41,655 bases of DNA from Syntrophobacterales bacterium (GTDB lineage: Bacteria > Desulfobacterota > Syntrophobacteria > BM002): the NCBI GenBank assembly GCA_050123975.1, contig JASFGC010000001.1:1-41655 (forward strand). Direction: 5' to 3'. Positions 27,108 through 40,945 of the stretch are shown piece by piece (positions within the stretch are counted from its first letter, which is position 1; the number at the start of each line of letters is the position of its first letter). The notes beneath the pieces were generated by a model that had not been told where the DNA came from, ran no database searches, and saw nothing but the letters and a program-made list of their open reading frames with translations. Made by a program: the position numbers and the translations under genes.

Positions 27108-27124
27108 CGGAATCAGCAGTTCCG
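27108..27124. promoter_or_regulatory. palindromic UAS candidate CGGAAT-CAGCA-GTTCCG
   Basis: Same 17-bp palindrome family as the five copies around 36.8-38.3 kb. Its end is 55 bp upstream of the TGG of the sigma-54 promoter. Confidence 0.6.
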
Positions 27125-27178
27125 ATTTTTTGCACTTCATTTTACAATAAATATAATAATTTCAATATTTTAAATACA

Positions 27179-27194
27179 TGGCATCTCTGTTGCT
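27179..27194 (+). promoter_or_regulatory. sigma-54 (-24/-12) promoter TGGCATctctgTTGCT
   Basis: GG and GC are at canonical spacing. An IHF-like TTCAATATTTTA (27161-27172) ends 6 bp upstream. The USP ATG is ~65 nt downstream. Confidence 0.7.
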
Positions 27195-27259: not shown

Positions 27260-28195
27260 ATGGCTGAATTGAGCAAAATGATAGTCGTAGCCGTGGATGG
27301 TTCCGAAAATGCTCTCAAATCCTTAGATTATTTAGGTCTGCTTTACGGAGCCAAGCCGAGCCTGGAGATCGTTCTCCTTTACGTATTACCTACTTTGCCC
27401 CCGATCCTCGTTGCTGATGATGACCGCCAAAGCAAGTTAAGACTGCTGGCTGTCGAAAAGAAAAGCATCCAGATGGCTGAGCGTATTCTTTCTGAGGCAA
27501 AGAACCTCCTCCGCAAGAAAGGTTTTAAGGATGAACACATTCGGTCATTGCATCGGAAAAAGCAGATGGGCATAGCCCGGGATATATGCAACTTGGCAGA
27601 TGAAAAGAGGGCAGACAGTGTGCTCATCAGTGCGAAAGGTAGAAGCAAACTGGAGGCTTTTTTCTCCGGAGGGGTGGCAAACAGAATGCTAGAGTATTGC
27701 CGTGTCTGTCCAGTGTGGCTAGTGGAGGGTACGGTCAAATCAAAAAAGGTGCTCATCGCCATGGATGGCTCAGCAAACGCTCTCAGAGCAGCAGACCATG
27801 CTGCTTTTATGCTTTCTGGAACCGACTGTCAAGTGGCTCTGTTTCACTCTAAACGACATTTGAGACGTTTTGTACCTCAGGAGATAATTGAGGCAGCGCC
27901 AGAACTGGTAGAACTCTGGAAAAATAAGGCGGGAGAGCAGATCGCGCCGTACATGAAAAAGGCGAATGAAATGCTTCTGGAAGCAGGCATCCCTGAGGCT
28001 CAAATAAAGACCAAGGTGGTTGACGGAAGCAGGGATGCTGCCAGCGATATCCTCAAGGAAGCTAAGAGCAACGACTATGGAACTGTGGTTTTAGGACGAC
28101 GAGGTCACTCAGGTGTAAAGGAATTTTTCATGGGCAGTGTCACCAGTAAGGTTCTCCAAGACTTTGCTGGTAGGGCTGTTTGGCTTGTGCAATAG
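27260..28195 (+). CDS. tandem universal stress protein (two UspA domains)
   Basis: Two copies of the pattern VAVDGSENA ... (G.RG.S....F.GSV...V) ... V.LV. The ATG at 27260 with an AGGAGAAAAGG RBS is preferred over the track start at 27206. Confidence 0.85.
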   Translation: MAELSKMIVVAVDGSENALKSLDYLGLLYGAKPSLEIVLLYVLPTLPPILVADDDRQSKLRLLAVEKKSIQMAERILSEAKNLLRKKGFKDEHIRSLHRKKQMGIARDICNLADEKRADSVLISAKGRSKLEAFFSGGVANRMLEYCRVCPVWLVEGTVKSKKVLIAMDGSANALRAADHAAFMLSGTDCQVALFHSKRHLRRFVPQEIIEAAPELVELWKNKAGEQIAPYMKKANEMLLEAGIPEAQIKTKVVDGSRDAASDILKEAKSNDYGTVVLGRRGHSGVKEFFMGSVTSKVLQDFAGRAVWLVQ

Positions 28196-28268
28196 TAAAT
28201 AGATCGCAATTTGTTTCCATGCTGGAATGGGGCAAATTGGAAAAGGATCAAAGAAAGGGAGGTTCAGA

Positions 28269-28868
28269 ATGAAAAGGTCGGTTGTTTATGTTGTCGGTTT
28301 GGTTTTCTTGGCGTTGTGCTCAATGGCTGGCGCAAAATCTCCTGGTACTGTTGGACCATTCGGTTTCGCCATAGGGAAAACCTCATATGAAGAGGTTTTA
28401 AATGTTGCCCAGCAGCGCAATTGGCGATATCAGGAATACGAGAAAAGACACTTTAAGCCGATAAGTAAGAAAGATCCTGCTCGTGGTAAGAACACTTTTG
28501 TAAGAGCAACACCCAAGGGTATTGAGGGGGTCAGAAGCATCCTGATATTTTTTAATGGCGAATCAACCCTTGATGCAGTGATCGTCATTTTGGATCCCAA
28601 GTTGTTTGAAGACGTTTACCAGCAGCTGGATGCTAAATACAAACTTGTCCAAAAAAGCTTGAAGGGTGAATATCTCTCTACCGATTATCCCTATGCGTTA
28701 TGGCAAAAAGATAATGTCTACATTGAATTACAGAAAGCTAGCCCTTATCGGACAAGATTAGTGTATGTTGAAAAAGCAGTGTACGTGAACTACCGAGATT
28801 TTCTAAACAAGCATTATCCACGGTTTCGGCACACTCAAGAGAAAAGAGGCTGGATGGACGAACTGTGA
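28269..28868 (+). CDS. secreted hypothetical protein
   Basis: ATG at 28269 preceded by AAGGGAGG. Signal peptide MKRSVVYVVGLVFLALCSMAGA. No family recognised. Confidence 0.55.
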   Translation: MKRSVVYVVGLVFLALCSMAGAKSPGTVGPFGFAIGKTSYEEVLNVAQQRNWRYQEYEKRHFKPISKKDPARGKNTFVRATPKGIEGVRSILIFFNGESTLDAVIVILDPKLFEDVYQQLDAKYKLVQKSLKGEYLSTDYPYALWQKDNVYIELQKASPYRTRLVYVEKAVYVNYRDFLNKHYPRFRHTQEKRGWMDEL

Positions 28869-28900: not shown

Positions 28901-30346
28901 TCAAGGGCGAGACTTAACCGTTATTAAGACCTCAACATCCGGCCATTTTTTGTCTGCTGGTTGTACCTTGGGAGGCGCCACTATTTTCTTGGAGAGATTA
29001 ACATCTTTCTTGATGCTCTCCAGATAAACTGGCTCGGTCATTAAAGTGGTTCTTTGCTCCAAGTCACTTGCCGGGGCCAATATCTTTACTTGTTTCGGTT
29101 CCACAGTTACCGATACCAATTCCAAACCTTCGGGCAGAGTGCCCACCAGTTGTGGCTGTACCTCTACCACAGTCTCCACTATTTCCTCCAACGACACTGC
29201 TACGCTGGAAGGGGTTGCACCCACCAGTTTTACGCTTCTTGGGAGCAACACATTCTTTTCTGACATGACAAGAACCTGTCTCCCTGCCAAAGCCTCGGAC
29301 AAGTCAATCCTGGTACTTAAATTCAGAGGAGTTATATCATCGAGATTTGACTTCGGCCCTGTCAAATGCAGTTTGATTTCAGTCGGCTGGTCACCCGCAA
29401 GTGCAAGGTGCTTGGGGATACCAATGTATTCGATAGGAACGGTGAAAGCTTTTTCCCTTATCTCCATCTGTCCCAGAATAACACTTGACCAGACGACAAG
29501 AGCGACAATGAGACTGAAACCGATTTGAGCAATCAACTCTCGAGTCTTCATTGTTTTGGGCACTTCGATGCCGTGAAAAGCAATAGTTTCCCAGTGAGAG
29601 ATCAATTGTGTGGATAGGTCGCTCCTGTCATGGACTCTCTGGGGTTTTCCGTCGCGAAAGAGAGTAATGACCCCCCTTTCTTCCGAGACTACCACCACCA
29701 AAGCGTCCGATACTTCAGAAAGTCCAATTGCTGCGTGATGCCTGGTGCCGAAATCATTGGACAGCTTGCCCGTTTTCGATAAAGGAAGACGCACGCCGAA
29801 TTGAGTGAGTCTGCCGCCATCAATGATCAGGGCACCATCATGGCCAGGTGAATTGGGATCGAAGATACTCATGATAAGTGGATACGTGGGGGTAGCATTG
29901 AGACCCACACCGCCGGAGAGCCATCTCTCGATCGGTTCTTTACCAGGCACTACGAATATTGCCCCCCTTTTTTTCTCAGCTAAAGAGAAGGCAGTATCAA
30001 CTATGACCATGACCAAGTCTGTATGATCTCTGCCTCGCCCCCGCCCTCTAAAAGACGCTGCACTTTCGAATACCTTTCTGATTTCGGGCTGAAAAAGGAC
30101 AATCAATCCGATCAGCGCAACTTGGCTCAGATTTGAAAAAAGCCAGAGAATTCCTTTGAGGTCTAAAATGTTGGCGGCAACGAAGATAGCAATGGCCAGG
30201 AATATTCCCACCACGATTTTCCAAGCACCCAACCTGTGCAGCGTGCGATACAAGAGAAACAATGCGGCTGCCAACAGGAGAATGTCTAAAAACACCCTCC
30301 AGTCGAGCATGAGCTTGATCATTTTGAAAGTATTCAACTTCGCCAC
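28901..30346 (-). CDS. cdaA: diadenylate cyclase CdaA fused to a CdaR-like YbbR-repeat extracytoplasmic region
   Basis: It has three N-terminal TM helices and a DAC domain (LFQPEIRK, GHDGALIIDG, FGTRHHAAIGLSE, VVVVSEERGVITL). A fourth TM follows, then ~190 aa with YbbR-like beta repeats (IEYIGIP..L, V.V.LEE, V.V.PK.V.I). Confidence 0.85.
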   Translation of the reverse strand: MAKLNTFKMIKLMLDWRVFLDILLLAAALFLLYRTLHRLGAWKIVVGIFLAIAIFVAANILDLKGILWLFSNLSQVALIGLIVLFQPEIRKVFESAASFRGRGRGRDHTDLVMVIVDTAFSLAEKKRGAIFVVPGKEPIERWLSGGVGLNATPTYPLIMSIFDPNSPGHDGALIIDGGRLTQFGVRLPLSKTGKLSNDFGTRHHAAIGLSEVSDALVVVVSEERGVITLFRDGKPQRVHDRSDLSTQLISHWETIAFHGIEVPKTMKTRELIAQIGFSLIVALVVWSSVILGQMEIREKAFTVPIEYIGIPKHLALAGDQPTEIKLHLTGPKSNLDDITPLNLSTRIDLSEALAGRQVLVMSEKNVLLPRSVKLVGATPSSVAVSLEEIVETVVEVQPQLVGTLPEGLELVSVTVEPKQVKILAPASDLEQRTTLMTEPVYLESIKKDVNLSKKIVAPPKVQPADKKWPDVEVLITVKSRP

Positions 30347-30355
30347 CTCTATTGG

Positions 30356-31654
30356 TTACTTTACCAGCAAGGGCATAAAGATTACAGCAAAACCCAAGAA
30401 CGAGGCGAATCCGACACAGTCAGTCACGGTGGTGAGAAAAATTGATGAGGACTGTGCCGGGTCGCGGTTGAGGGCTTTCAATATGAGAGGGATGGTTGCT
30501 CCTGAAAGACCGGCCGCCACCATATTGACGATCATGGACAAAAAAATCACCAATGCAAGACCATAGTTTTTGCTCCAAACCCAGACAGCTCCAGCGGTAC
30601 CCACCGCAACTGCTATGCCATTAAACAGGCCTGCGAGAACTTCTTTCACGATAACCCGCTTGGCAGCGCCAGAAATGATTTCGTGAAGAGCCAAGCCGCG
30701 CATAACCACGGCCAGGGCTTGGGCTCCCGTGTTTCCTCCCTGACCGGAGACAATTGGGAGAAGCACAGCCAGGGCGGTTACCTTTTGGATGGTACCCTCA
30801 AACGCACCCACCACCGCTGCTGCCAGGAAAGCGGTCAATAAGTTTACGTATAGCCAGGGTAAGCGACGTTTTACCACAGTCGAAACCGGTGAAAGAGCGC
30901 GCTCGTCACCTCCAGCACCAACCATTTTCTGGAGATCCTCAAATGCTTCCAATTGACCGGCGCGCAGTGCTTCATCGTGTTTGATCACGCCCACAAGCCG
31001 ACCATCACTATCAACAACCGGTAGGGCAAGAAAGCGGTGCCTGCGTATAAGGGTGATAACCTCTTCCCGGGTCATGGTCTCGGGTACGCTGAGAATTTCC
31101 CGGTGAATCAGGGACTCTATTTTATCCTGTGGGGGTGCGAGCATGAGTTCGCGCATATTGAGGACGCCAGCCAATTTCCCATCGCTGTCAGTCACATACA
31201 AATAAAACAAGCTCTGACGTGGGGCTTTGCGTAAGTAAGCAGCCGCAGCTTTGACGGTCAGGTCCATTGGTATGGCAGCTACTCGCGGTTCCATCATTCC
31301 GCCTGCAGTATCCGGCGAATAATGCATGAGGTCACGGAGTTGCCTCGCTACACGATCTGAAAGCTTTGACAGAGCGTCTTCCCTACTGCTCTGTTCAAGA
31401 TGCTGAAGTATCATGGACGCTGTTCTCGGCGGCATGTTCTCCAGCAATTCCCTGACACGAGATGGATCTAGATTTTCTAGGATAGCGGCAGCAATATGAG
31501 GTCGGAGACGCTCCAGCAAAAGTCCGATGGCTCTGAATGGTAGCTTTTTTACGATCCCGACAGCTTCACTGATATCCAGCTGTTCTAAAGCATGTGCTGC
31601 ATCTTTGGGGTGGCTTTCCACAAATTGTCGAACAAGCAATTGAGCCGTTTCCAT
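30356..31654 (-). CDS. mgtE: magnesium transporter MgtE
   Basis: MgtE N-domain, CBS pair, and a C-terminal TM domain with SGQGGNTGAQ and DPA..SSIFLTTVTD motifs. It ends 9 bp before the cdaA start. Confidence 0.92.
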   Translation of the reverse strand: METAQLLVRQFVESHPKDAAHALEQLDISEAVGIVKKLPFRAIGLLLERLRPHIAAAILENLDPSRVRELLENMPPRTASMILQHLEQSSREDALSKLSDRVARQLRDLMHYSPDTAGGMMEPRVAAIPMDLTVKAAAAYLRKAPRQSLFYLYVTDSDGKLAGVLNMRELMLAPPQDKIESLIHREILSVPETMTREEVITLIRRHRFLALPVVDSDGRLVGVIKHDEALRAGQLEAFEDLQKMVGAGGDERALSPVSTVVKRRLPWLYVNLLTAFLAAAVVGAFEGTIQKVTALAVLLPIVSGQGGNTGAQALAVVMRGLALHEIISGAAKRVIVKEVLAGLFNGIAVAVGTAGAVWVWSKNYGLALVIFLSMIVNMVAAGLSGATIPLILKALNRDPAQSSSIFLTTVTDCVGFASFLGFAVIFMPLLVK

Positions 31655-31764
31655 TCAAGCTGTCCTTTCACCGAAAAAATGTTTCTGCCAATATGCCATC
31701 ACCGAAGCATTCTTTTCAGCGTGGGTCGTCGCAGGGTATGCCGTGCGCATTGATCTTTGCTTTT

Positions 31765-32814
31765 TCAATCTTCTGTCTTTTTAGGCGCAGATCGTTTGTG
31801 CTTACGCTTGCGCGCCAACTTTTGTAGGTCCACTACTTTGTCAGTCTCGTCCACGATTTCGGCACCCAGCACAGTCTCCAACAGATCTTCCAAAGTGATG
31901 AGGCCCGCCACCCCACCATACTCATCCTCTACGATGGACATATGGCTGCGTTTTTTTAAGAAGCGGTTCAACAATGCCAGACAATTTGTCTCTTCCCGTA
32001 CGAAAGAAATAGGCTTGACAATGGAAGACAGGAGCATATCGGGCTCGCTCATTATTCCGGCACAGCCGAGGTCATGGATCATGACATAGCCCAGTACGTT
32101 GTCTTTGTCCTCGCCATGGACAGGGATGCGAGTAAAACCCTTACCACTTGCAGCTTGAAGTGCTTCCCCGATTGTCATTTCAGCATTCAGGCTAAACATC
32201 ACTTTTCGAGGGGTCATGACCTCACGAACCTCTGTATTTTCCAGCTTTATGATATTGTGGACCATGAGGCTTTCCCACTCAGTGATTTCACCTTCTTTGG
32301 CTCCCAAACGAATGGACCCCAAGATGTCTTCCTCAGTGATTCGGGCAGGCGGACGGCCACGGGTGAGAAAAGCAGAGAACTTCTCGGTGATCCAAATTAA
32401 GGGGTAGAGAGGATACTTCATTGCAGTCAGAGGCCAGACAATCACAGGCCAGAGATTACGCCAATAAACAGCACCCATGGTTTTGGGAATGATCTCGGCA
32501 AAGAAGAGGATAGCGAGAGTGAATATAATAGAAAAAATAGGAACCAAGCCCACTCCTAATGTTTTGTGGGCATACATCCCCGCGATGGTAGCTCCCGCAG
32601 TGTTGGCGATGGTGTTCAGAATGAGTATCGCCGCAATGGGCTCGGAGATCTGTTTTTTCAACTGAATCATCTTTAAAGCCATCTGTCTTGTCTTCGATTT
32701 GGATTTTGCAGCTTCCAATGTCCCCAGGCGGGTGGAATACAACGTGGCTTCATACAGTGAGCATTGTGCTGAAATAAAGATGGTTAGAAACACAACAAAA
32801 AACAGGATAGACAT
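31765..32814 (-). CDS. CNNM/CorC-type transporter (DUF21 membrane domain + CBS pair, no CorC_HlyC C-domain)
   Basis: DUF21 helices (ILILNTIANTAGA, FAEIIPK), then a CBS pair (V.EVMTPR ... IVEDEYGGVAGLITLEDLLE). Confidence 0.85.
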   Translation of the reverse strand: MSILFFVVFLTIFISAQCSLYEATLYSTRLGTLEAAKSKSKTRQMALKMIQLKKQISEPIAAILILNTIANTAGATIAGMYAHKTLGVGLVPIFSIIFTLAILFFAEIIPKTMGAVYWRNLWPVIVWPLTAMKYPLYPLIWITEKFSAFLTRGRPPARITEEDILGSIRLGAKEGEITEWESLMVHNIIKLENTEVREVMTPRKVMFSLNAEMTIGEALQAASGKGFTRIPVHGEDKDNVLGYVMIHDLGCAGIMSEPDMLLSSIVKPISFVREETNCLALLNRFLKKRSHMSIVEDEYGGVAGLITLEDLLETVLGAEIVDETDKVVDLQKLARKRKHKRSAPKKTED

Positions 32815-32842
32815 TGATGTCTCCTTTTCTACTTCTGCTTCT

Positions 32843-33823
32843 TTATTTGAACTGTTTGATTACAAAACGGCCCAAGCTGGCTGGGTCATCTTTTTCAAGG
32901 TGCTTCGCTAAATTGGCCAAAGGAATTTCAGCACGGGCCCTGGCCCGATGCCCGCCTGCTGTACCCAAGCGGCCAAAGGCCCTGGCTGCCCTGGTGCCGG
33001 CGTTTTTGCGGAAACCATGATTGCGGATAATCACCACCAGCGTTTTCTTGTACACACCAGAGACTATAACCCAATCGATCTCATGTAATCTCAGGAAGAA
33101 GTCCGCGACAAGTACGAGATTATCCGGCGACTGGACCTGACCGAGGTGACTGAAGATTTTCCCCTCGATAATCTTTTTGTTTGCGAGGGCCAGTTGGAAA
33201 TATTCTAGGTCCTCTGCCCCCATGTCGGCTGCTTCGATCTTTCGCAGCAGATTCATATCAGCGTGAGAGAAAAGATATCGAAAGGCCTTTATGTCCTCTT
33301 CTGCCACACCTGACTCAAAATTACCGGTGTCCACCCGGATGGCAAAAAGAAGGGCAGTAGCCAGGCTTTTGGAGGGGCGTATCCTGGCTGCCCGCAGATA
33401 CTCTGTCATCATAGTGGCTGTAGCCCCGTAATCTGGCCGTATGTCCAGAAACGGAGCCCCGAGTGAAGTTGTTCGGGGATGGTGGTCAATAACCACGTCA
33501 TAGTCAAAATCGGCGTAAGCTTCGTTGTGGTCGGGCTGGCCGTCCACCAAGACAGTCTTTGAAAAGCTGGAACCGTCCACCCGGTGCAAGCGCTCGAGGG
33601 GGATCTTGAGAAGCCTGATCATTGTCACGTTGTCGTATCGATTGATTTCGTTGAAATGAGCGATGGTCACTGACTGAACTTTGCGCCAGAGGAGACGCTT
33701 GAGGGCCAAGGCCGATGCCAGGGCGTCAGGGTCGGCCCAAATGGTTATGAGAACATTGTCCTTAGAGTTAAACTGGCTGAGAAGCTCTCGCAGACGACCC
33801 TGCCTTGATCTTGTTGGAGACAT
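32843..33823 (-). CDS. DHH/DHHA1 family phosphoesterase (NrnA-like)
   Basis: Motifs ADPDALASA, VLVDGQP, VVIDHHP, DTGNF, and the DHHA1 motif GTAGGH. Confidence 0.8.
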   Translation of the reverse strand: MSPTRSRQGRLRELLSQFNSKDNVLITIWADPDALASALALKRLLWRKVQSVTIAHFNEINRYDNVTMIRLLKIPLERLHRVDGSSFSKTVLVDGQPDHNEAYADFDYDVVIDHHPRTTSLGAPFLDIRPDYGATATMMTEYLRAARIRPSKSLATALLFAIRVDTGNFESGVAEEDIKAFRYLFSHADMNLLRKIEAADMGAEDLEYFQLALANKKIIEGKIFSHLGQVQSPDNLVLVADFFLRLHEIDWVIVSGVYKKTLVVIIRNHGFRKNAGTRAARAFGRLGTAGGHRARARAEIPLANLAKHLEKDDPASLGRFVIKQFK

Positions 33824-33849
33824 TGTTGTACCTCAAGGGTCAGAGAGTA

Positions 33850-34083
33850 TCAGGAGTCTCTCAAATGATCAAATTCCTGGGGCGAGTGAGGGGATGATCC
33901 CAGAGCACCTTCCCGTAGATCAGCCACCCCGATAATGTGGCCGTGGAAGTGCTTCAGGCTCTGTTCTTCCAGAAACTGGATGAGAGACTTACAGTCTGAG
34001 CCCCCTCCCACCAAGGCAACATTAATGCATGAGGACTGCGTCTCAGCCTGAACCGTCGAATGTGTTTTCTCGACAATTTGCAT
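33850..34083 (-). CDS. small ORF (77 aa), possibly a remnant of a Rossmann-like N-terminus of a larger gene
   Basis: ATG with AGAGGA 7 nt upstream. VALVGGGSDCKSL resembles a GxGxxG N-terminus. There is no downstream continuation. Confidence 0.25.
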   Translation of the reverse strand: MQIVEKTHSTVQAETQSSCINVALVGGGSDCKSLIQFLEEQSLKHFHGHIIGVADLREGALGSSPHSPQEFDHLRDS

Positions 34084-34137
34084 GATGATCCTCTATCTTT
34101 AAAGGAATCTCGCCCGTATTGGTCTTTTCTATCTGAT

Positions 34138-34168
34138 AGAAAAGCGGGCTTTGGTGCCCGCTTTTCCC
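34138..34168 (-). terminator. rho-independent terminator after hsp20 (potentially bidirectional)
   Basis: agcgggc-tttggt-gcccgct (34143-34162), flanked by an A-run on one side and a T-run on the other. Confidence 0.7.
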
Positions 34169-34191
34169 TTTGTCGAAGTGGACTAGTAACC

Positions 34192-34647
34192 TTAGGCGGC
34201 CTTGACCTCGATCTTCTTGACGGCCTCAGGGGCAGTCTTGGGCATACTGATGCTGAGTACCCCGTCCTTGTAGTTGGCCTTGATTTTGTCTGTTTTCACT
34301 TCCACAGGCAATTGCACTGTCCTCGAAAAGGAGCCGGAGCCGCGCTCAACCAGGTGGAAGTTTTCTTTTTTCTCCTCGCGCTCGTGTTTGCGCTCGCCCT
34401 TGATGGTCAGCACCTTTCCGCTCAAGGAGATGTCAATCTCTTTTGGATCCATTCCCGGCAGTTCAGCCCTGACCACTAGCTCCTTGTCAGTCTCGGACAC
34501 ATCCACCGAAGGCATCCACCTTCCGGTCTCTGAGACACCGCGAAACGGCCACGCTTCCGAGAACATGTCGAAAAGCCGATCCATCTCGCGACGCATCTGG
34601 GTGAGGCCCCAGTCCTCTCCTTTTCTCCAACGGATCAAATCTGTCAT
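34192..34647 (-). CDS. Hsp20/alpha-crystallin small heat-shock protein
   Basis: The alpha-crystallin domain includes PSVDVSETDKELVVRAELPG, GVLSISMPK and a C-terminal I-x-V. Confidence 0.92.
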   Translation of the reverse strand: MTDLIRWRKGEDWGLTQMRREMDRLFDMFSEAWPFRGVSETGRWMPSVDVSETDKELVVRAELPGMDPKEIDISLSGKVLTIKGERKHEREEKKENFHLVERGSGSFSRTVQLPVEVKTDKIKANYKDGVLSISMPKTAPEAVKKIEVKAA

Positions 34648-34740
34648 TTTCTCTTACCTCCTTCTCGAACATAGAGTTCGTTCATCTGCGAATGTGACAT
34701 TTCAAACGCTATGCGCTATGTTCTCCCTGCTTTGCGAGCC

Positions 34741-36393
<1,653 letters not shown>

Positions 36394-36684
36394 TTATTTT
36401 TGAATCACTGCCAGAATGTCATCCTCACGCATGAGTAAATGTTCGTCACCATCGATTTTGACTTCAGTGCCGGCATACTTGCCAAACAGTACTTTGTCAC
36501 CTTTCTTGACATCCGGGGGGATAACATCGCCATTGTTCAAGATTTTACCCTTGCCAACGGCAATGACTTTGCCCTGGATGGACTTTTCCCTGGCAGTGTC
36601 AGGGATGATGATTCCCCCCGTGCTTTTGTCCTCTTCCTCTAATCGTTTGATCAGGACTCGATCGTGCAAAGGTCTAACCTTCAT
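36394..36684 (-). CDS. groES: co-chaperonin GroES
   Basis: [14 protein letters not shown] ... The ATG at 36684 has AGGAGG 8 nt upstream. The track start at 36693 is GTG. Confidence 0.95.
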
Positions 36685-36737
36685 GGTTTGCACCTCCTGT
36701 ACAATAATGCTTCATATCAACATCACATTCGTCATTG

Positions 36738-36753
36738 AGCATTCCCCATGCCA
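36738..36753 (-). promoter_or_regulatory. sigma-54 (-24/-12) promoter TGGCATggggaATGCT upstream of groES
   Basis: Read on the minus strand. GG and GC are at canonical spacing. An IHF-like TTCAGTTAATTA (36760-36771) ends 6 bp upstream. The groES ATG is ~55 nt downstream. Confidence 0.65.
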
Positions 36754-36806
36754 AAGTGATAATTAACTGAAATTACAGGGTAAAATGAGAAAAATACGAT
36801 TGACAC

Positions 36807-36823
36807 CGGAACTCTGAGTTCCT
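36807..36823. promoter_or_regulatory. palindromic UAS candidate CGGAAC-TCTGA-GTTCCT (proximal to the groES promoter)
   Basis: 54 bp from the -24 TGG, the same geometry as at the other two promoters. Confidence 0.6.
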
Positions 36824-36910
36824 ATAATTGGGTGGGAAGATAGGTGGCTCAGTTTAGTCAGAACCGAGGATTGTTTCTAATGTATTGAAATCGGTTGAAA
36901 AACCAGATAG

Positions 36911-36927
36911 TGGAATTCTAAGTTCCT
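36911..36927. promoter_or_regulatory. palindromic UAS candidate TGGAAT-TCTAA-GTTCCT
   Basis: Same palindrome family, in the groES / activator divergent spacer. Confidence 0.5.
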
Positions 36928-36940
36928 CTATTCCTTTTTT

Positions 36941-36957
36941 CGGAACTAGAGGTTCCG
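36941..36957. promoter_or_regulatory. palindromic UAS candidate CGGAAC-TAGAG-GTTCCG
   Basis: Perfect 6+5+6 palindrome, 13 bp from the previous copy. Confidence 0.55.
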
Positions 36958-37075
36958 CATTACAAGAGATAGCGAAGAACCGCTGGGAGGAAGAAAGGGA
37001 AAAGAAGATTGATTTAAAATCATTTTTAGATTATTCACGCTCTAATCTATTGAATTTTGGGTGAGGGAGAAGCTG

Positions 37076-38116
37076 ATGAGCTCCGAGCTTGACTCTTTAA
37101 AAGACCAATTTTGGCAACCGAGTTCCTTGGCAGTAATTCAAACCAAAAACTCCACCATGCAAACGGTCTTCGCCAAAATCCGCTCTGTGGCGCCGACCAA
37201 GAGTACCGTTTTACTAACAGGTGAGACCGGAACAGGCAAAGGTGTGCTTGCGAATCTCATTCATCAACACAGCAATCGCAGGGATGCCAAGTTTGTCAGC
37301 GTTCACTGCGGCGCGATCCCAGACACACTCTTGGAAAGCGAACTGTTCGGGCATGAGAAGGGGGCCTTCACAGGTGCCGACAGAAGAAAGCTGGGAAAAT
37401 TCGAAATCTCCAAAGGGGGAACGATTTTTCTGGATGAGATCGGTACCATTACACCGGCTGCACAGATAAAGCTCTTGCAGGTACTGCAGGATGGGACTTT
37501 TCAGCGAGTAGGTGGTGAAGCGACCTTCAATGCCGATGTGCGAGTAATAGCGGCCAGTAATATGGATCTCGAAGAAATGTGTGACAATGGCCACTTTAGA
37601 AAGGACCTCTATTTCCGCTTGAACGTCTTTCCCGTGGAAATTCCACCCCTAAGGGAGAGAAAAGAAGACATCCCTCATATTGTGGAAGTTATTATAGGCA
37701 GGCTCAATAAATTTCACCTCAAAGAAATTCGCGACATCCACCCGGATGTAATGGAAGGATTTCTCAATTACTCCTGGCCGGGAAACATACGAGAACTGGA
37801 AAATCTCATGGAACGAGCGTACATTCTTGAAAGCTCATCTACATTGACGCCGGAAAGTTTTCCCTTGGAACTGCTTACCTTAGAGGCTCCATCGGCGCAG
37901 ATGGGGTTGGATTCTTCATTTACCTTGGCTGAGGTCAGACGAAGAGCCTTGGAGGAAGTTGAGAAGCGCTACCTGAAGGAGCTCCTTGCAGGCCAAAAAG
38001 GGAAAATACGAGAGTCGGCAGAGGTCGCCGGCATTACCACCCGCCAATTGCACAAGTTGCTCACAAAATACGGGATTAAGAAGGAGGACTTCAAGTCCCG
38101 TACCAGCCATCAATAG
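37076..38116 (+). CDS. sigma-54-dependent transcriptional activator (bEBP) lacking an N-terminal sensory/receiver domain (PspF-like architecture)
   Basis: Walker A LLTGETGTGKG lies ~50 aa from the start. The hallmark GAFTGA loop is present (EKGAFTGADRRK), as is Walker B TIFLDEIG. The C-terminal Fis-type HTH is SAEVAGITTRQLHKLLTKYGI. ATG at 37076 (the track's GTG is at 37061). Confidence 0.9.
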   Translation: MSSELDSLKDQFWQPSSLAVIQTKNSTMQTVFAKIRSVAPTKSTVLLTGETGTGKGVLANLIHQHSNRRDAKFVSVHCGAIPDTLLESELFGHEKGAFTGADRRKLGKFEISKGGTIFLDEIGTITPAAQIKLLQVLQDGTFQRVGGEATFNADVRVIAASNMDLEEMCDNGHFRKDLYFRLNVFPVEIPPLRERKEDIPHIVEVIIGRLNKFHLKEIRDIHPDVMEGFLNYSWPGNIRELENLMERAYILESSSTLTPESFPLELLTLEAPSAQMGLDSSFTLAEVRRRALEEVEKRYLKELLAGQKGKIRESAEVAGITTRQLHKLLTKYGIKKEDFKSRTSHQ

Positions 38117-38123
38117 AGCAAAA

Positions 38124-38140
38124 CGGAACCATGAGTTCCG
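38124..38140. promoter_or_regulatory. palindromic UAS candidate CGGAAC-CATGA-GTTCCG
   Basis: Perfect palindrome arms, 8 nt after the activator stop codon. Confidence 0.55.
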
Positions 38141-38256
38141 ACATTCAGAGAATCGGTCCTTCAAGTTCTTCCTCTAAAGTTATCCATAGAAATCAAGATT
38201 TTAAAAGCTCCATTTGAACTGTGCCCGCACTTTACCACTTTCTCTCCCCCCCATAG

Positions 38257-38273
38257 CGGAACCTACAGTTCCG
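38257..38273. promoter_or_regulatory. palindromic UAS candidate CGGAAC-CTACA-GTTCCG
   Basis: Perfect arms. Its end is 55 bp upstream of the TGG of the next sigma-54 promoter. Confidence 0.6.
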
Positions 38274-38327
38274 ATTGCTCTTCCCCCGCATCACATTAAA
38301 TATAGTTAATTCAATATGTTATTGAGA

Positions 38328-38343
38328 TGGTACAACTCTTGCG
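38328..38343 (+). promoter_or_regulatory. sigma-54 (-24/-12) promoter TGGTACaactcTTGCG
   Basis: GG and GC are at canonical spacing. An IHF-like TTCAATATGTTA (38310-38321) ends 6 bp upstream. Confidence 0.65.
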
Positions 38344-38494
38344 CTGTACCTATTGCTAATTGATGCTGTCATATGATCCAAGGGTGAGACAGGCGGAACT
38401 GGCCGGAGTTTTCTAGCCGTTGTTGCTCACGGCATAACCAAAGATAAATGTATGACTTGCTTCCGGACAGAGTCTGCGGAAGGAGCCGCAGGTC

Positions 38495-38761
38495 ATGATA
38501 AGCGGGGAAAAAGCCCCTGTGGAGGATTCTATCACCATTAGAGGACTGCTTGTTCCCATCGATTGGGATGAGAAAGGCAACATCACCGAGATTGCTGTTT
38601 CCACTTATTTCGAAGAGGAGTATCTCATCGAAAAGAATGTCAGGGGAGAAGAGATGTTGCCCTTCCTTCGCCAAAAGGTGAAGGTCATCGGATTCGTGAA
38701 AATGGATGAGGGTGGGAAGAAGGTTGTCAGGGTGGAAGAGTATCAAGTAATTGAAGACTGA
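38495..38761 (+). CDS. small acidic hypothetical protein (88 aa), first gene of the sigma-54-driven unit
   Basis: ATG with AAGGAG 9 nt upstream. The predicted protein is beta-rich (ITIRGLLVPIDWDEKGNITEIAV ... KVKVIGFVK ... VVRVEEYQVIED). No family recognised. Confidence 0.6.
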   Translation: MISGEKAPVEDSITIRGLLVPIDWDEKGNITEIAVSTYFEEEYLIEKNVRGEEMLPFLRQKVKVIGFVKMDEGGKKVVRVEEYQVIED

Positions 38762-38810
38762 CTCAGTTGGGGAAGTATCAGCTGCTGGCTCTGAGTTGCG
38801 GAGGTGCGAG

Positions 38811-38945
38811 ATGTTTTCACGGTTTTGTGGGGAAATTCTAACGGTGCTTCTATTGGCGACTATATTGATTTTAAGGATCGTATTCTTCTTATGTAATGAG
38901 ATCGAAGCGGTCGAAATAGATTTGAGTGATATCGAGCAATGGTAA
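38811..38945 (+). CDS. possible 44-aa single-TM peptide
   Basis: ATG preceded by GGAGG. Hydrophobic core ILTVLLLATILILRIVFFL. It is short and unsupported by homology. Confidence 0.25.
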   Translation: MFSRFCGEILTVLLLATILILRIVFFLCNEIEAVEIDLSDIEQW

Positions 38946-38994
38946 TCAGAGCATTTACCTGCACAGTTTGTGCTCTTAGGCAAGGAGTCGGAAG

Positions 38995-39471
38995 GTGAAA
39001 TTGCAGAAGCTGCTCGTACCGGTTGACTTCTCGTTGGGTTCTGAAATGGCTTTCAAATATGCCAAGTTTCTGGCGAAAAAATTCTCCGCCAGCATCCATT
39101 TGATCCATGTTGTGGATAAGAGATACGTCGAAAAGATTGCTGAACTCAATGGTGAACCAGAAGACGAAGTGAGTGAGAAACTGTGCTCCCTGGCCAATGA
39201 AAAACTTGAAAGTTTCCTAACTTACAATGATTCAAATGGACTAATAGCCGGGAAGAAGATAAGTGTGGGGACTCCTTTTCAGGCCATAGCACTGCGTGCA
39301 CAGGTAATTGACGCGGACATGATAGTCATGGGTGGACAGGGGAGAGCTGGAGACGGAGAGATCGACGAGATTTTTTTCGGAAGTGCCGCAGAAAGGGTTG
39401 TGAGGTTACTCCCCTGTGCGGTTTTGTGTGTACCCCAGGAAGTGGATGGTCTCGGGGGTGGAGAGAAGTAA
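38995..39471 (+). CDS. universal stress protein (single UspA domain)
   Basis: KLLVPVDFS ... IVMGGQGR ... FGSAAERVVRLLPCAVLCV. GTG start with AAGGAG 7 nt upstream. Confidence 0.85.
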   Translation: MKLQKLLVPVDFSLGSEMAFKYAKFLAKKFSASIHLIHVVDKRYVEKIAELNGEPEDEVSEKLCSLANEKLESFLTYNDSNGLIAGKKISVGTPFQAIALRAQVIDADMIVMGGQGRAGDGEIDEIFFGSAAERVVRLLPCAVLCVPQEVDGLGGGEK

Positions 39472-39586: not shown

Positions 39587-40945
39587 ATGGAAGATCTCAG
39601 ACGCATATTCTCGAGAGTTGAAGACAAGAAGTCGGATTATGCCAGGTACAACTTTTCCACCCAGCAAGACATTGTTCTGAAAACCTTCTTCGACTTGGCC
39701 CAAGAGTTTGAAAGCTTGGAGGACCTTTACCGAGTCTGTGTAGCGGTCCCTAAAGCCCACTTCGGATTGGATACAAACCTTTACCTTAATCACAAGAGCA
39801 GACAAGTACTGGTGCTGATTTGTAGCAGCAACGAAGGATACCTTGGCTCTCCTGACAAACTACCACCTGCGCTCATTCAAGCCTCAAACGAAGCATTCAT
39901 TGAAAATGAATCTCTTTTTACCCCCATTTTCGGTAAAATGGTCATCGCGGAGGTTAAAAATACAGAGGAAAAACAAGAACTCCTGGGCGTGTTGGAGATT
40001 CGGCCGGGAAGTGATCTTACAGAGAGTGAGCAATTTTTTTTCCAGAAATACGCCAACCGGATTGGCTACGCTCTCTATAACAGGATCTTGAGTCAGAGAA
40101 ACATCGAGCATCTCAAGTTTATCGACTCAATGGTTGCTGACATTGAGCACAACGTGATTGTGCCAAACATGGCCTTCCGCCTCTTTCTCAGGCGACTTCA
40201 AGGTAAGATTCGCAAAAACCATGAGATTGAGCGTATGCTTCGTAAGAAATGCAAAGAGATTACTGAAGGTGGCACCCTCGACCACGATTGGCAGGAGCGG
40301 GTCATGGCAGAACTTCAGGACGTTAATCGCGGTCTTGAAGAGGAGCTAGGTAACATAGAAAGGCATAATCGCAACATGAGCCTTTTTATTGAAAGTCTAT
40401 TTCGCCGGAGGCACTTTCAAGAAGGCCAATTTATTCCACGAAAGCGTCGCTGTAGATTGAAAAAGCAAATCATTGAACCCCAGTTGGAACGATTCAGAGA
40501 GCGATTTTCCTCAAAAGGCATAGCCATAGATGTTCAACTCGGAGGAGTGCCGGATGAGTCTGCGGTGGCAGTGGTTGATGTGGGACTCATTTCCCAGGTC
40601 TATGCCAACCTTTTTTCCAATGCTCTTAAATACACGCGGGTGATGCATGATGCAGACGGTGCAGAGAAGAAATTTGTTGCCTACGGGCAAGAGATAGTGG
40701 GGGATTACTTCGGTACCGGCAAAGACGGGGTAAAGTTTAACGTATTCAACACCGGGCCGCACATCCCACCAGAAGAGCGTGAGCGTATTTTTGAGGATGG
40801 ATACCGGAGCAATCAGGCGGGTGGTGAGCCAGGCACCGGTCACGGGTTGAGCTTCGTCAAGAGAGCGGTTGAAATCCACGAAGGTGTCGTTGGCTACGAA
40901 CCTACTCCCCTTGGGAACAATTTCTATTTCATCCTGCCAAAATAG
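39587..40945 (+). CDS. cytoplasmic sensor histidine kinase (GAF-like N-terminus, long DHp, HATPase_c)
   Basis: N box NLFSNALKY, G1-like NTGPHIPPEE and G2 GTGHGLSFV. The candidate phospho-His lies in MVADIEHNVIVPN. No TM segments are present and no adjacent response regulator. Confidence 0.75.
   Translation: MEDLRRIFSRVEDKKSDYARYNFSTQQDIVLKTFFDLAQEFESLEDLYRVCVAVPKAHFGLDTNLYLNHKSRQVLVLICSSNEGYLGSPDKLPPALIQASNEAFIENESLFTPIFGKMVIAEVKNTEEKQELLGVLEIRPGSDLTESEQFFFQKYANRIGYALYNRILSQRNIEHLKFIDSMVADIEHNVIVPNMAFRLFLRRLQGKIRKNHEIERMLRKKCKEITEGGTLDHDWQERVMAELQDVNRGLEEELGNIERHNRNMSLFIESLFRRRHFQEGQFIPRKRRCRLKKQIIEPQLERFRERFSSKGIAIDVQLGGVPDESAVAVVDVGLISQVYANLFSNALKYTRVMHDADGAEKKFVAYGQEIVGDYFGTGKDGVKFNVFNTGPHIPPEERERIFEDGYRSNQAGGEPGTGHGLSFVKRAVEIHEGVVGYEPTPLGNNFYFILPK

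Follow-up and report, generated by a model that had tools for sequence, protein, structure and literature searches.

Results

Organisation of the groES-groEL-hsp20 locus

A stretch of 41,655 nucleotides (nt) from a metagenome-assembled genome (MAG) of Syntrophobacterales bacterium (GCA_050123975.1, contig JASFGC010000001.1, positions 1 to 41,655; the whole stretch is called the window here) carries on its minus strand a chaperonin operon comprising groES, groEL and hsp20 and, divergently from groES, a gene for a sigma-54 activator of the AAA+ type (Table 1). Chaperonin genes are the textbook case of control by sigma-32 or by HrcA and its operator CIRCE (controlling inverted repeat of chaperone expression), whereas the preliminary description of this locus, made from the sequence alone, had placed the operon under a sigma-54 promoter. 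The groES product is identical to a protein named GroES in public annotation; AGGAGG stands directly ahead of its ATG at 36684, and a GTG at 36693 falls within this ribosome-binding site. As described before, groEL and hsp20 follow on the same strand and a clear terminator comes after hsp20. The 93-nt spacer between groEL and hsp20 shows, by eye, neither a sigma-54 motif nor an obvious terminator, and the scan for terminator-like structures lists none there. We infer that the three genes form a single transcription unit in which hsp20 would be co-transcribed. The same spacer holds CGAACTCTATGTTCG (34666-34680, minus strand), a near-copy of the activator palindrome described below with the outer G and C swapped, which lies 18 nt ahead of the hsp20 ATG, some 6 nt before its ribosome-binding site, with no sigma-54 motif alongside; it might be a further binding site, form a hairpin in the RNA or have arisen by chance.

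Table 1. Features of the window that bear on the control of the chaperonin operon and of its putative regulon (aa, amino acids; UAS, upstream activating sequence; IHF, integration host factor; OB, oligonucleotide/oligosaccharide-binding).
Feature	Position	Strand	Basis or remark
groES, 96 aa	36394..36684	-	Pfam Cpn10, E = 1e-37
groEL, 539 aa, non-canonical C-terminal tail	34741..36360	-	sequence comparison
hsp20, 151 aa, last gene of the operon	34192..34647	-	Pfam HSP20, E = 4.9e-25
Intrinsic terminator after hsp20, stem AAAAGCGGGC/GCCCGCTTTT and T-rich tail	34138..34168	-	stem of ~12 pairs, folding z = -3.5
Predicted sigma-54 promoter, -24/-12 elements TGGCAT-gggga-ATGCT	36738..36753	-	motif scan
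IHF-like site AATTTCAGTTAATTA	36760..36774	-	ends 6 nt upstream of TGG
UAS1, proximal enhancer site GGAACTCTGAGTTCC, GGAAC-N5-GTTCC	36808..36822	none	69 nt upstream of TGG
UAS2, enhancer site GGAATTCTAAGTTCC	36912..36926	none	104 nt upstream of UAS1
UAS3, enhancer site GGAACTAGAGGTTCC	36942..36956	none	134 nt upstream of UAS1
Sigma-70 consensus promoter TTGACA-17-TATAAT facing the activator gene	36800..36828	+	12/12 matches; UAS1 within spacer
Sigma-54 activator, 346 aa: AAA+ with GAFTGA, lid, C-terminal helix-turn-helix, no receiver	37076..38116	+	Pfam Sigma54_activat (PF00158), E = 2.9e-67
Second regulon promoter, with TGGTACaactcTTGCG at 38328-38343	38125..38343	+	palindrome and composite scans
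sp88, conserved 88-aa protein, predicted OB fold	38495..38761	+	metagenome cargo counts and AlphaFold
Universal stress protein gene (usp) after sp88	38995..39471	+	Pfam Usp, E = 1.3e-22
Third regulon promoter, UAS GGAATCAGCAGTTCC (palindrome 27109) and TGGCATctctgTTGCT (27179)	27109..27194	+	motif, palindrome and composite scans

The promoter region upstream of groES

The minus strand reads TGGCATggggaATGCT (also written TGGCATGGGGAATGCT) from 36753 to 36738, with a GG-to-GC spacing that fits the sigma-54 consensus TGGCAC-N5-TTGCW, and the groES ATG follows 54 nt past the 3' end of this motif, which agrees with the distance of about 55 nt given previously. Upstream of it lie an IHF-like site and three GGAAC-N5-GTTCC palindromes, at 69, 173 and 203 nt from the TGG. 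The proximal palindrome and the IHF-like site had been said to be placed as at two other promoters, and all three indeed combine a palindrome, an A/T-rich site and -24/-12 elements, with 69-70 nt from palindrome to TGG; the palindromes at 36912 and 36942, the perfect sigma-70 consensus of the plus strand, the nature of the divergent gene as an activator and the absence of its receiver had been overlooked. Taken singly the motifs are mildly enriched in the window (two matches against 0.25 expected for the -24/-12 motif, six against 1.4 for the palindrome), and the composite pattern, a palindrome followed after 53-56 nt by -24/-12 elements, gave exactly three matches, against none in 100 dinucleotide shuffles.

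Competing signals were searched for on the same sequence. CIRCE (TTAGCACTC-N9-GAGTGCTAA) has no match with three or fewer mismatches anywhere in the 41,655-nt window, which extends its reported absence from 36694-37060. The best CIRCE-like sequence in the window, TTATCACTT-N9-GAATGCTCA at 36735-36761, has four mismatches and coincides with the sigma-54 promoter itself; we dropped it as a coincidence, since its inverted symmetry is poor and the related loci L007 and L008 do not share it, and other groES loci with the sigma-54 arrangement show at least six mismatches to CIRCE. On the groES strand of the 392-nt intergenic region the best match to a sigma-32 promoter (CTTGAAA-N12-16-CCCCAT) reaches 9/13, a score equalled by 85% of shuffles, and the best sigma-70-like match is no better than in shuffled sequence. 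The scans thus found neither of the signals, an overlooked CIRCE or a sigma-32-type promoter, that had been named as arguments against sigma-54 control, above chance. An Rfam scan of 33800-39200 for RNA thermometers and leaders gave chance-level matches only.

Conservation of the promoter module

A metagenome collection scanned with GGAA-N5-AGTTCCG-N51-56-TGGYAY-N5-WTGC yielded at least 129 sites on at least 120 contigs, at which the distance from UAS1 to TGG ranges over 67-71 nt. Features outside the search pattern recur at these sites. In 114 unique related sites among the matches listed, the IHF consensus AATATCAAtaaGTTA occupies a fixed position shortly before the -24 element; a perfect WATCAANNNNTTR occurs in 39 of the 118 unique sites listed, beginning exactly 19 nt before TGG in 35 of the 39, and in none of the length-matched downstream controls. 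Among the sites listed, two positions that had not been searched for, a G following TGGCAC and a T preceding TTGC, fit the sigma-54 consensus. Additional palindromes cluster 102-104 and 132-134 nt upstream of UAS1 (107 related sites listed), with 132 matches for the distal palindromes upstream compared to three in the downstream control, and the spacing of 104 and 134 nt at the groES enhancer of the window is that found across the related sites. On 57 of the 120 contigs listed, all retrieved by the DNA pattern alone, an activator homologue is the direct neighbour of the site, most of these homologues being 52-92% identical over their full length. As a negative control, about 1.0 Mb surrounding 80 unrelated sigma-54 activator genes was scanned with a relaxed pattern, and nothing matched; these loci came from a genome-collection scan with the activator protein, in which the matches listed were distant paralogues only (best identity 67%) and did not include the genome of the window. 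Because un-searched features recur at fixed positions in related sites, we conclude that the sequence upstream of groES represents a genuine, enhancer-dependent sigma-54 promoter within a multi-operon regulon, the function of which is predicted from sequence, and the central proposal of the preliminary description, a sigma-54 promoter of the enhancer type ahead of groESL-hsp20, is well supported by the comparison.

The groES promoter itself is retained among relatives, in which -24 TGGCA and -12 TGC persist despite variation in the spacer: L007 (chromosome CP070692.1, activator 88% identical) has TGGCACaactaATGCT ahead of groES, L008 has TGGCACgactaATGCT and L001-L006 have TGGCATgaggaATGC, strain variants of the species in the window differ by one base that lies in the spacer, and in lineages with a GroES just 56-85% identical TGGCA...TGC is kept 69-73 nt before the ATG.

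The genes behind the promoter vary. The divergent promoter precedes groESL-hsp20 in the window, L114 and L227. In L008 (1930-2110, minus strand; activator 91% identical) groES is gone save for its last ~20 nt, so that the sigma-54 promoter stands directly ahead of groEL. A divergent promoter of the TGGCACaactaATGC type is kept in L228-L231 (e.g., L229:4612-5520) with a gene for a CBS-domain protein as its cargo, and in L009 (5129-5720) with a paralogue of sp88 and a ribosome-hibernation/cold-shock fusion gene. Among the at least 129 sites listed, groES-groEL lies downstream of 13 and hsp20 of 11 (two of the latter continue into groES-groEL), and further cargo includes dnaK, usp, a sigma-70-family sigma factor, lysine 2,3-aminomutase and others. 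The promoter module thus appears to be conserved while its cargo is exchanged.

The commonest gene behind the regulon promoters is sp88 (47-53 of the at least 129 sites), which follows directly downstream of the activator gene, behind a regulon promoter of its own, in nearly all loci examined. It matches no Pfam family and its annotations read only 'hypothetical'. The AlphaFold model (predicted local distance difference test score, pLDDT, 88.5) is a five-stranded barrel with one helix, the best structural matches of which are weak (E ~1e-3) and comprise the OB folds of SSB, PriB, RPA and the N-domains of tRNA synthetases.

A probable accessory chaperonin

A second groES-groEL pair is present in relatives. 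L007 combines the sigma-54 groES arrangement with another groES-groEL about 7 kb away behind TCAGCACTC-N9-GAGTGCTAA, and its CIRCE-linked GroES, used as query, retrieved many CIRCE-type groESL loci with conserved synteny in the clade; GCA_053614495.1, from a different lineage with a receiver-less activator, carries a CIRCE-type groESL too. The GroEL sequences differ at the C-terminus. In L219, behind a perfect CIRCE, GroEL ends ...GGGMEGMY (a Gly-Met tail); the GroEL of the window, 85% identical to it, lacks this tail, and sigma-54-linked GroELs end ...PEYPDEY or ...PPEDMY (those other than the window's ...PPEDMY or ...PTEDMY). Because relatives carry a CIRCE groESL as well and the GroEL of the window is without a Gly-Met tail, the operon is most likely an accessory chaperonin belonging to a stress regulon, and the variation of cargo among relatives is not what would be expected of a sole, essential chaperonin. 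A canonical groESL under CIRCE/HrcA is expected elsewhere in this genome, judging from its relatives. The statement that sigma-54 acts here rather than CIRCE/HrcA accordingly needs to be narrowed: the operon has a conserved, predicted sigma-54 promoter and no recognisable CIRCE, but the canonical system is probably not replaced, as relatives possess a CIRCE groESL. A search for a second, canonical copy, which the preliminary description had proposed, succeeded in L007 and related lineages but did not locate one in the MAG of the window.

In L007 (1-5280 and 13138-13237; chromosome CP070692.1) runs of N come after the sigma-54 groES and also break up the second groEL; the groEL beside the sigma-54 groES is unreadable because of such a run, and beyond the first run phage-like genes occur (primase-polymerase, terminase large subunit).

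The activator has lost its receiver domain

An identical activator protein is encoded on at least 15 metagenome contigs in the same gene order, and NCBI annotation places it in MAGs named Syntrophobacterales bacterium. Both Walker motifs (A and B) and the GAFTGA sequence are preserved intact. The closest non-truncated orthologues, however, have 471 aa (orthologues outside the lineage 469-471 aa) and an N-terminal Response_reg domain, of which no remnant is left at the protein level in the window. Compared with L114, L007 and L008, a single in-frame deletion of 375 nt joins the codons for M-R-S to those for E-L/F-D in the linker (junction MRS|E); GGTCC microhomology is found at both ends of the deleted segment, and, by a gap-tolerant global alignment, the gene has kept its native ATG and ribosome-binding site. 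An impression from a MAFFT alignment, that the ATG of the window corresponds to an internal Leu codon, was dropped on the same evidence of a native ATG and one deletion.

The truncated activators form a 90%-identity cluster of 69 members, mostly 346-347 aa long, from many samples, and the ratio of nonsynonymous to synonymous divergence (dN/dS) between receiver-less genes that have diverged to dS 0.1-0.5 is 0.08-0.17. The truncated form is therefore no artefact, and the pattern of substitutions establishes that the truncated gene is under purifying selection. In a neighbour-joining tree the truncated proteins fall into two groups nested among full-length ones, each recovered in 200/200 bootstraps, with joint monophyly in 11/200, which is suggestive of the same receiver deletion having possibly happened twice. 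The solved structure closest to the full-length orthologue is that of NtrC1 from Aquifex (4l4u, 1ny5; E = 1.8e-77, residues 4-459, without gaps through the linker), and by sequence the protein of the window is a descendant of the NtrC1/DctD-type family that is no longer a response regulator.

The sigma-70 promoter that faces the activator gene is identical (TTGACA-17-TATAAT) in L007 and L114 and reads TTGxxA-17-GATAAT in more distant divergent groES loci. The position of UAS1 inside its spacer suggests that the activator may repress its own gene, as happens with other genes for sigma-54 activators.

An intact histidine kinase gene (39587-40945, plus strand, 452 aa; Pfam recognises HATPase_c only) lies after the activator-sp88-usp group and is found at the same place in lineages with and without the receiver domain of the activator.

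Discussion

Mechanism and its alternatives

Sigma-54 promoters always need an ATPase activator, as the closed complex of RNA polymerase with sigma-54 cannot open alone, and a bend of the IHF type between enhancer and promoter is common, though not obligatory. We propose that a transcript of groES-groEL-hsp20 would start at the sigma-54 promoter (36753..36738) and end at the terminator (34168..34138, both on the minus strand), and that the AAA+ activator from the divergent gene (37076-38116) would open the closed complex. This protein would bind as dimers to the palindromes 69, 173 and 203 nt upstream of TGG, and an IHF-type bend immediately ahead of the -24 element would bring it to the polymerase. 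The same activator may also drive sp88-usp and the tandem-usp gene, which makes at least two further operons in the window, and in uncultured Syntrophobacteria-like bacteria a recurring stress set comprising sp88, groESL, hsp20, dnaK, usp and others. The consensus sigma-70 promoter with UAS1 in the spacer would determine the level of the activator, through autorepression. We regard it as likely that groESL-hsp20 is an accessory operon, transcribed as part of a conserved regulon from a sigma-54 promoter that needs an activator, and the dependence of groES transcription on RpoN and on the activator is predicted accordingly from the motifs.

Several points weigh against this view. The -12 region of the window (ATGCT, not TTGCW) and its IHF-like site AATTTCAGTTAATTA, with two mismatches to the nine specified consensus positions, are weaker than the family consensus. 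The scan pattern was taken from the window, which makes the searched positions conserved by construction and leaves the un-searched features alone to count. A weak sigma-70 or sigma-32 promoter could lie beyond the reach of consensus scans. The genes rpoN and ihf are not in the window, and no search aimed at either was made. Candidates for a second groESL found with the CIRCE-linked GroES of L007 were outside the accession blocks and samples of the window's MAG. The organism is an uncultured sediment bacterium represented by a MAG, and all functional steps are predictions built on the motifs, their spacing and conservation, the linkage of sites to the activator gene, the deletion and the purifying selection. 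Lastly, constitutive activity of the activator is extrapolated from NtrC1 and DctD, whereas the receiver of enteric NtrC is instead needed for activation.

Against this background, the -24/-12 match might not be a working promoter at all: an unrecognised housekeeping or sigma-32-type promoter could be used, while the palindromes would regulate the divergent activator gene only. Weak promoters do escape consensus scans, the region is A/T-rich and the proximal palindrome overlaps the sigma-70 promoter of the activator gene; yet on the groES strand shuffled sequence does as well as the best sigma-70-like and sigma-32-like matches, the -24/-12 elements, the IHF site and the distance to the groES ATG are conserved while spacer and untranslated sequences differ, and the same module also precedes unrelated cargo genes without an activator gene in divergent position, so that we consider this very improbable. 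Equally improbable in our view is that the operon encodes the sole housekeeping chaperonin of the organism, an essential gene wholly under sigma-54 control, which would be the preliminary claim in its strongest form. The lack of a second groESL in the 41.6-kb window and the failure to locate one in its MAG would fit, but in L007, the nearest complete relative that shares this arrangement, a CIRCE groES-groEL is located at a distance of about 7 kb, groESL loci with CIRCE and conserved synteny are common throughout the clade and one accompanies the receiver-less activator of GCA_053614495.1, the GroEL of the window is without the Gly-Met C-terminal tail, and in relatives the promoter bears other cargo or groEL without groES, which would be intolerable for a sole chaperonin.

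The remaining alternatives concern the activator. In NtrC1 and DctD the receiver represses assembly of the ATPase, and its removal gives constitutive activity; in enteric NtrC, the phosphorylated receiver is needed for oligomerisation and activation. As the receiver of Aquifex NtrC1 holds the ATPase in an inactive dimer, the 375-nt deletion would lead to activity without phosphorylation, and because truncated NtrC1 and DctD behave in this way we lean, by analogy, slightly towards a receiver-less activator that is constitutively active. On the model of enteric NtrC the truncated protein might instead be an inactive or dominant-negative remnant, with a regulon that is silent, decaying or served by another activator, and the intact histidine kinase (39587-40945) could now serve another partner. 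This we consider improbable, since dN/dS is 0.08-0.17 between truncated genes at dS 0.1-0.5, GAFTGA and both Walker motifs, the native start codon with its ribosome-binding site and all three target promoters with nine binding sites in the window are intact, and NtrC1, the nearest structural relative, is of the negative-control type. It is also conceivable, though rather unlikely, that the truncated activator is still gated, but in trans, by a protein that binds to its AAA+ domain as PspA does to PspF. Candidates would be sp88 or free GroEL, DnaK or Hsp20, giving a feedback that senses unfolded proteins; such a gate is compatible with the mechanism proposed above and would alter the gating step only. 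The domain architecture, AAA+ plus helix-turn-helix only, now equals that of PspF, sp88 lies immediately after the activator gene behind its own regulon promoter, which is the layout of a feedback regulator, and the cargo genes are chaperones; but the predicted OB fold of sp88, with its weak structural matches, is unlike PspA, and sp88 is equally present where the activator keeps its receiver. The operon can be called strictly activator-gated, as the preliminary description had it, only in the sense that sigma-54 always needs an ATPase activator; with the receiver lost, gating by a phosphorylation signal has probably disappeared or moved elsewhere in this lineage.

Comparison with known systems

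Other Bradyrhizobium groESL copies are under conventional heat-shock control, and PspF in its turn governs a stress regulon on sigma-54 promoters with an IHF site and represses its own sigma-70 promoter through a shared enhancer. Bradyrhizobium japonicum groESL3 is listed among the RpoN-dependent genes (PMC4842269), and like it the operon in the window would be one groESL copy of several on a -24/-12 promoter that needs an enhancer-binding activator. The systems differ in that groESL3 depends on NifA (GAF-AAA+-helix-turn-helix), has a TGT-N10-ACA enhancer and shares its regulation with nitrogen fixation, whereas the window has an NtrC1-like activator and GGAAC-N5-GTTCC sites, a regulon of stress genes (sp88, usp, hsp20, dnaK), hsp20 within the operon, and belongs to another phylum. 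The activator of the window has no GAF domain (TGT-N10-ACA was not searched for), and no nif or fix genes were detected among the 27 open reading frames of the window scanned against Pfam.

An in-silico survey of 2025 predicts sigma-54 promoters at genes for GroEL, GroES, IbpA, DnaK, DnaJ and GrpE in Planctomycetota and Bacteroidota (PMC12316311); in the parts of that survey available to us the chaperone enrichment is given for these two phyla only and no cognate activator or enhancer is named, whereas the window provides activator, sites and regulon. The earlier remark that enhancer-dependent control of groESL is not the textbook arrangement is correct, with the qualification that precedent exists in groESL3 (PMC4842269) and in these predicted promoters (PMC12316311). 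For the delta-proteobacteria the published picture of groESL control is HrcA/CIRCE plus sigma-32 (PMC545781). The operon of the window is of the same groES-groEL type, and relatives carry a CIRCE groESL; unlike those systems, it has neither CIRCE nor a sigma-32-like promoter.

The protein of the window begins inside the linker between receiver and AAA+ domain, like the receiver-less NtrC1C construct (4l4u, 1ny5, 1ny6), but here the truncation is natural and under purifying selection. With PspF the activator shares the composition of AAA+ plus helix-turn-helix and the lack of a sensory domain, although it is not an orthologue (E ~1e-54 for PspF, ~1e-77 for NtrC1), its architecture being secondarily derived from a response regulator; no PspA-like gene was recognised among the open reading frames of the window scanned against Pfam. 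Our literature search found no description of the activator, the GGAAC-N5-GTTCC enhancer, the regulon or a sigma-54 heat-shock activator in Desulfobacterota, and no relevant match in the literature on HsfA/HsfB of Myxococcus.

The locus would represent a third route of chaperonin control in the delta-proteobacteria, made up of a dedicated activator, a three-site enhancer, an IHF site and a sigma-54 promoter, by which an extra chaperonin may be controlled along with genes for small heat-shock proteins, Hsp70 and universal stress proteins, and which recurs in many sediment metagenomes. Nothing is overturned by this, as sigma-54 control of one groESL copy is already known from Bradyrhizobium. It gives a regulator that is otherwise just an anonymous member of the 'NtrC family' a putative binding motif and regulon, with a conserved 88-aa protein of predicted OB fold as its main target. 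The clean removal of the receiver from a gene kept under selection amounts to a natural experiment, which lets the loss of a receiver in a sigma-54 circuit be tested directly. A wider synthesis, which we offer tentatively and regard as rather doubtful, is that, across a broad clade of Syntrophobacteria-like bacteria from sediments, all uncultured, a two-component sigma-54 activator runs a general regulon for proteotoxic and other stress beside HrcA/CIRCE (accessory, tail-modified GroESL, Hsp20, DnaK, Usp and the OB-fold protein), and that its receiver was deleted by natural selection at the same microhomology, possibly twice, turning a response gated by a signal into a constitutive, autoregulated one, with sp88 or chaperones possibly acting as a gate in trans.

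Other regulon promoters and neighbouring genes

The second regulon promoter has a distal site at 38125-38139, a degenerate middle site at ~38155 and a proximal site at 38258-38272; the synteny of usp downstream of sp88 is kept in L001-L008 and L227-L231. The third precedes a tandem-Usp gene (27206 or 27261 to 28195). Pfam returned nothing significant for the 213-aa (28227-28868) and 77-aa (33850-34083) open reading frames.

Between two of the regulon promoters lies a gene run on the minus strand (28901-33823) linked to cyclic-di-AMP and magnesium, which comprises a fusion of a CdaA-type diadenylate cyclase with YbbR (28901-30346), MgtE (30356-31654), a CNNM/CBS transporter (31765-32814) and a DHH-family protein (32843-33823). 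In the sister strain L227 (3589-7740; activator 97% identical) usp is followed by an island of stress genes, a DnaJ-like gene with a MerR_2 partner (cbpA/cbpM-like), then lon and another hsp20, and a scan for the regulon promoter pattern ahead of them gave no match.

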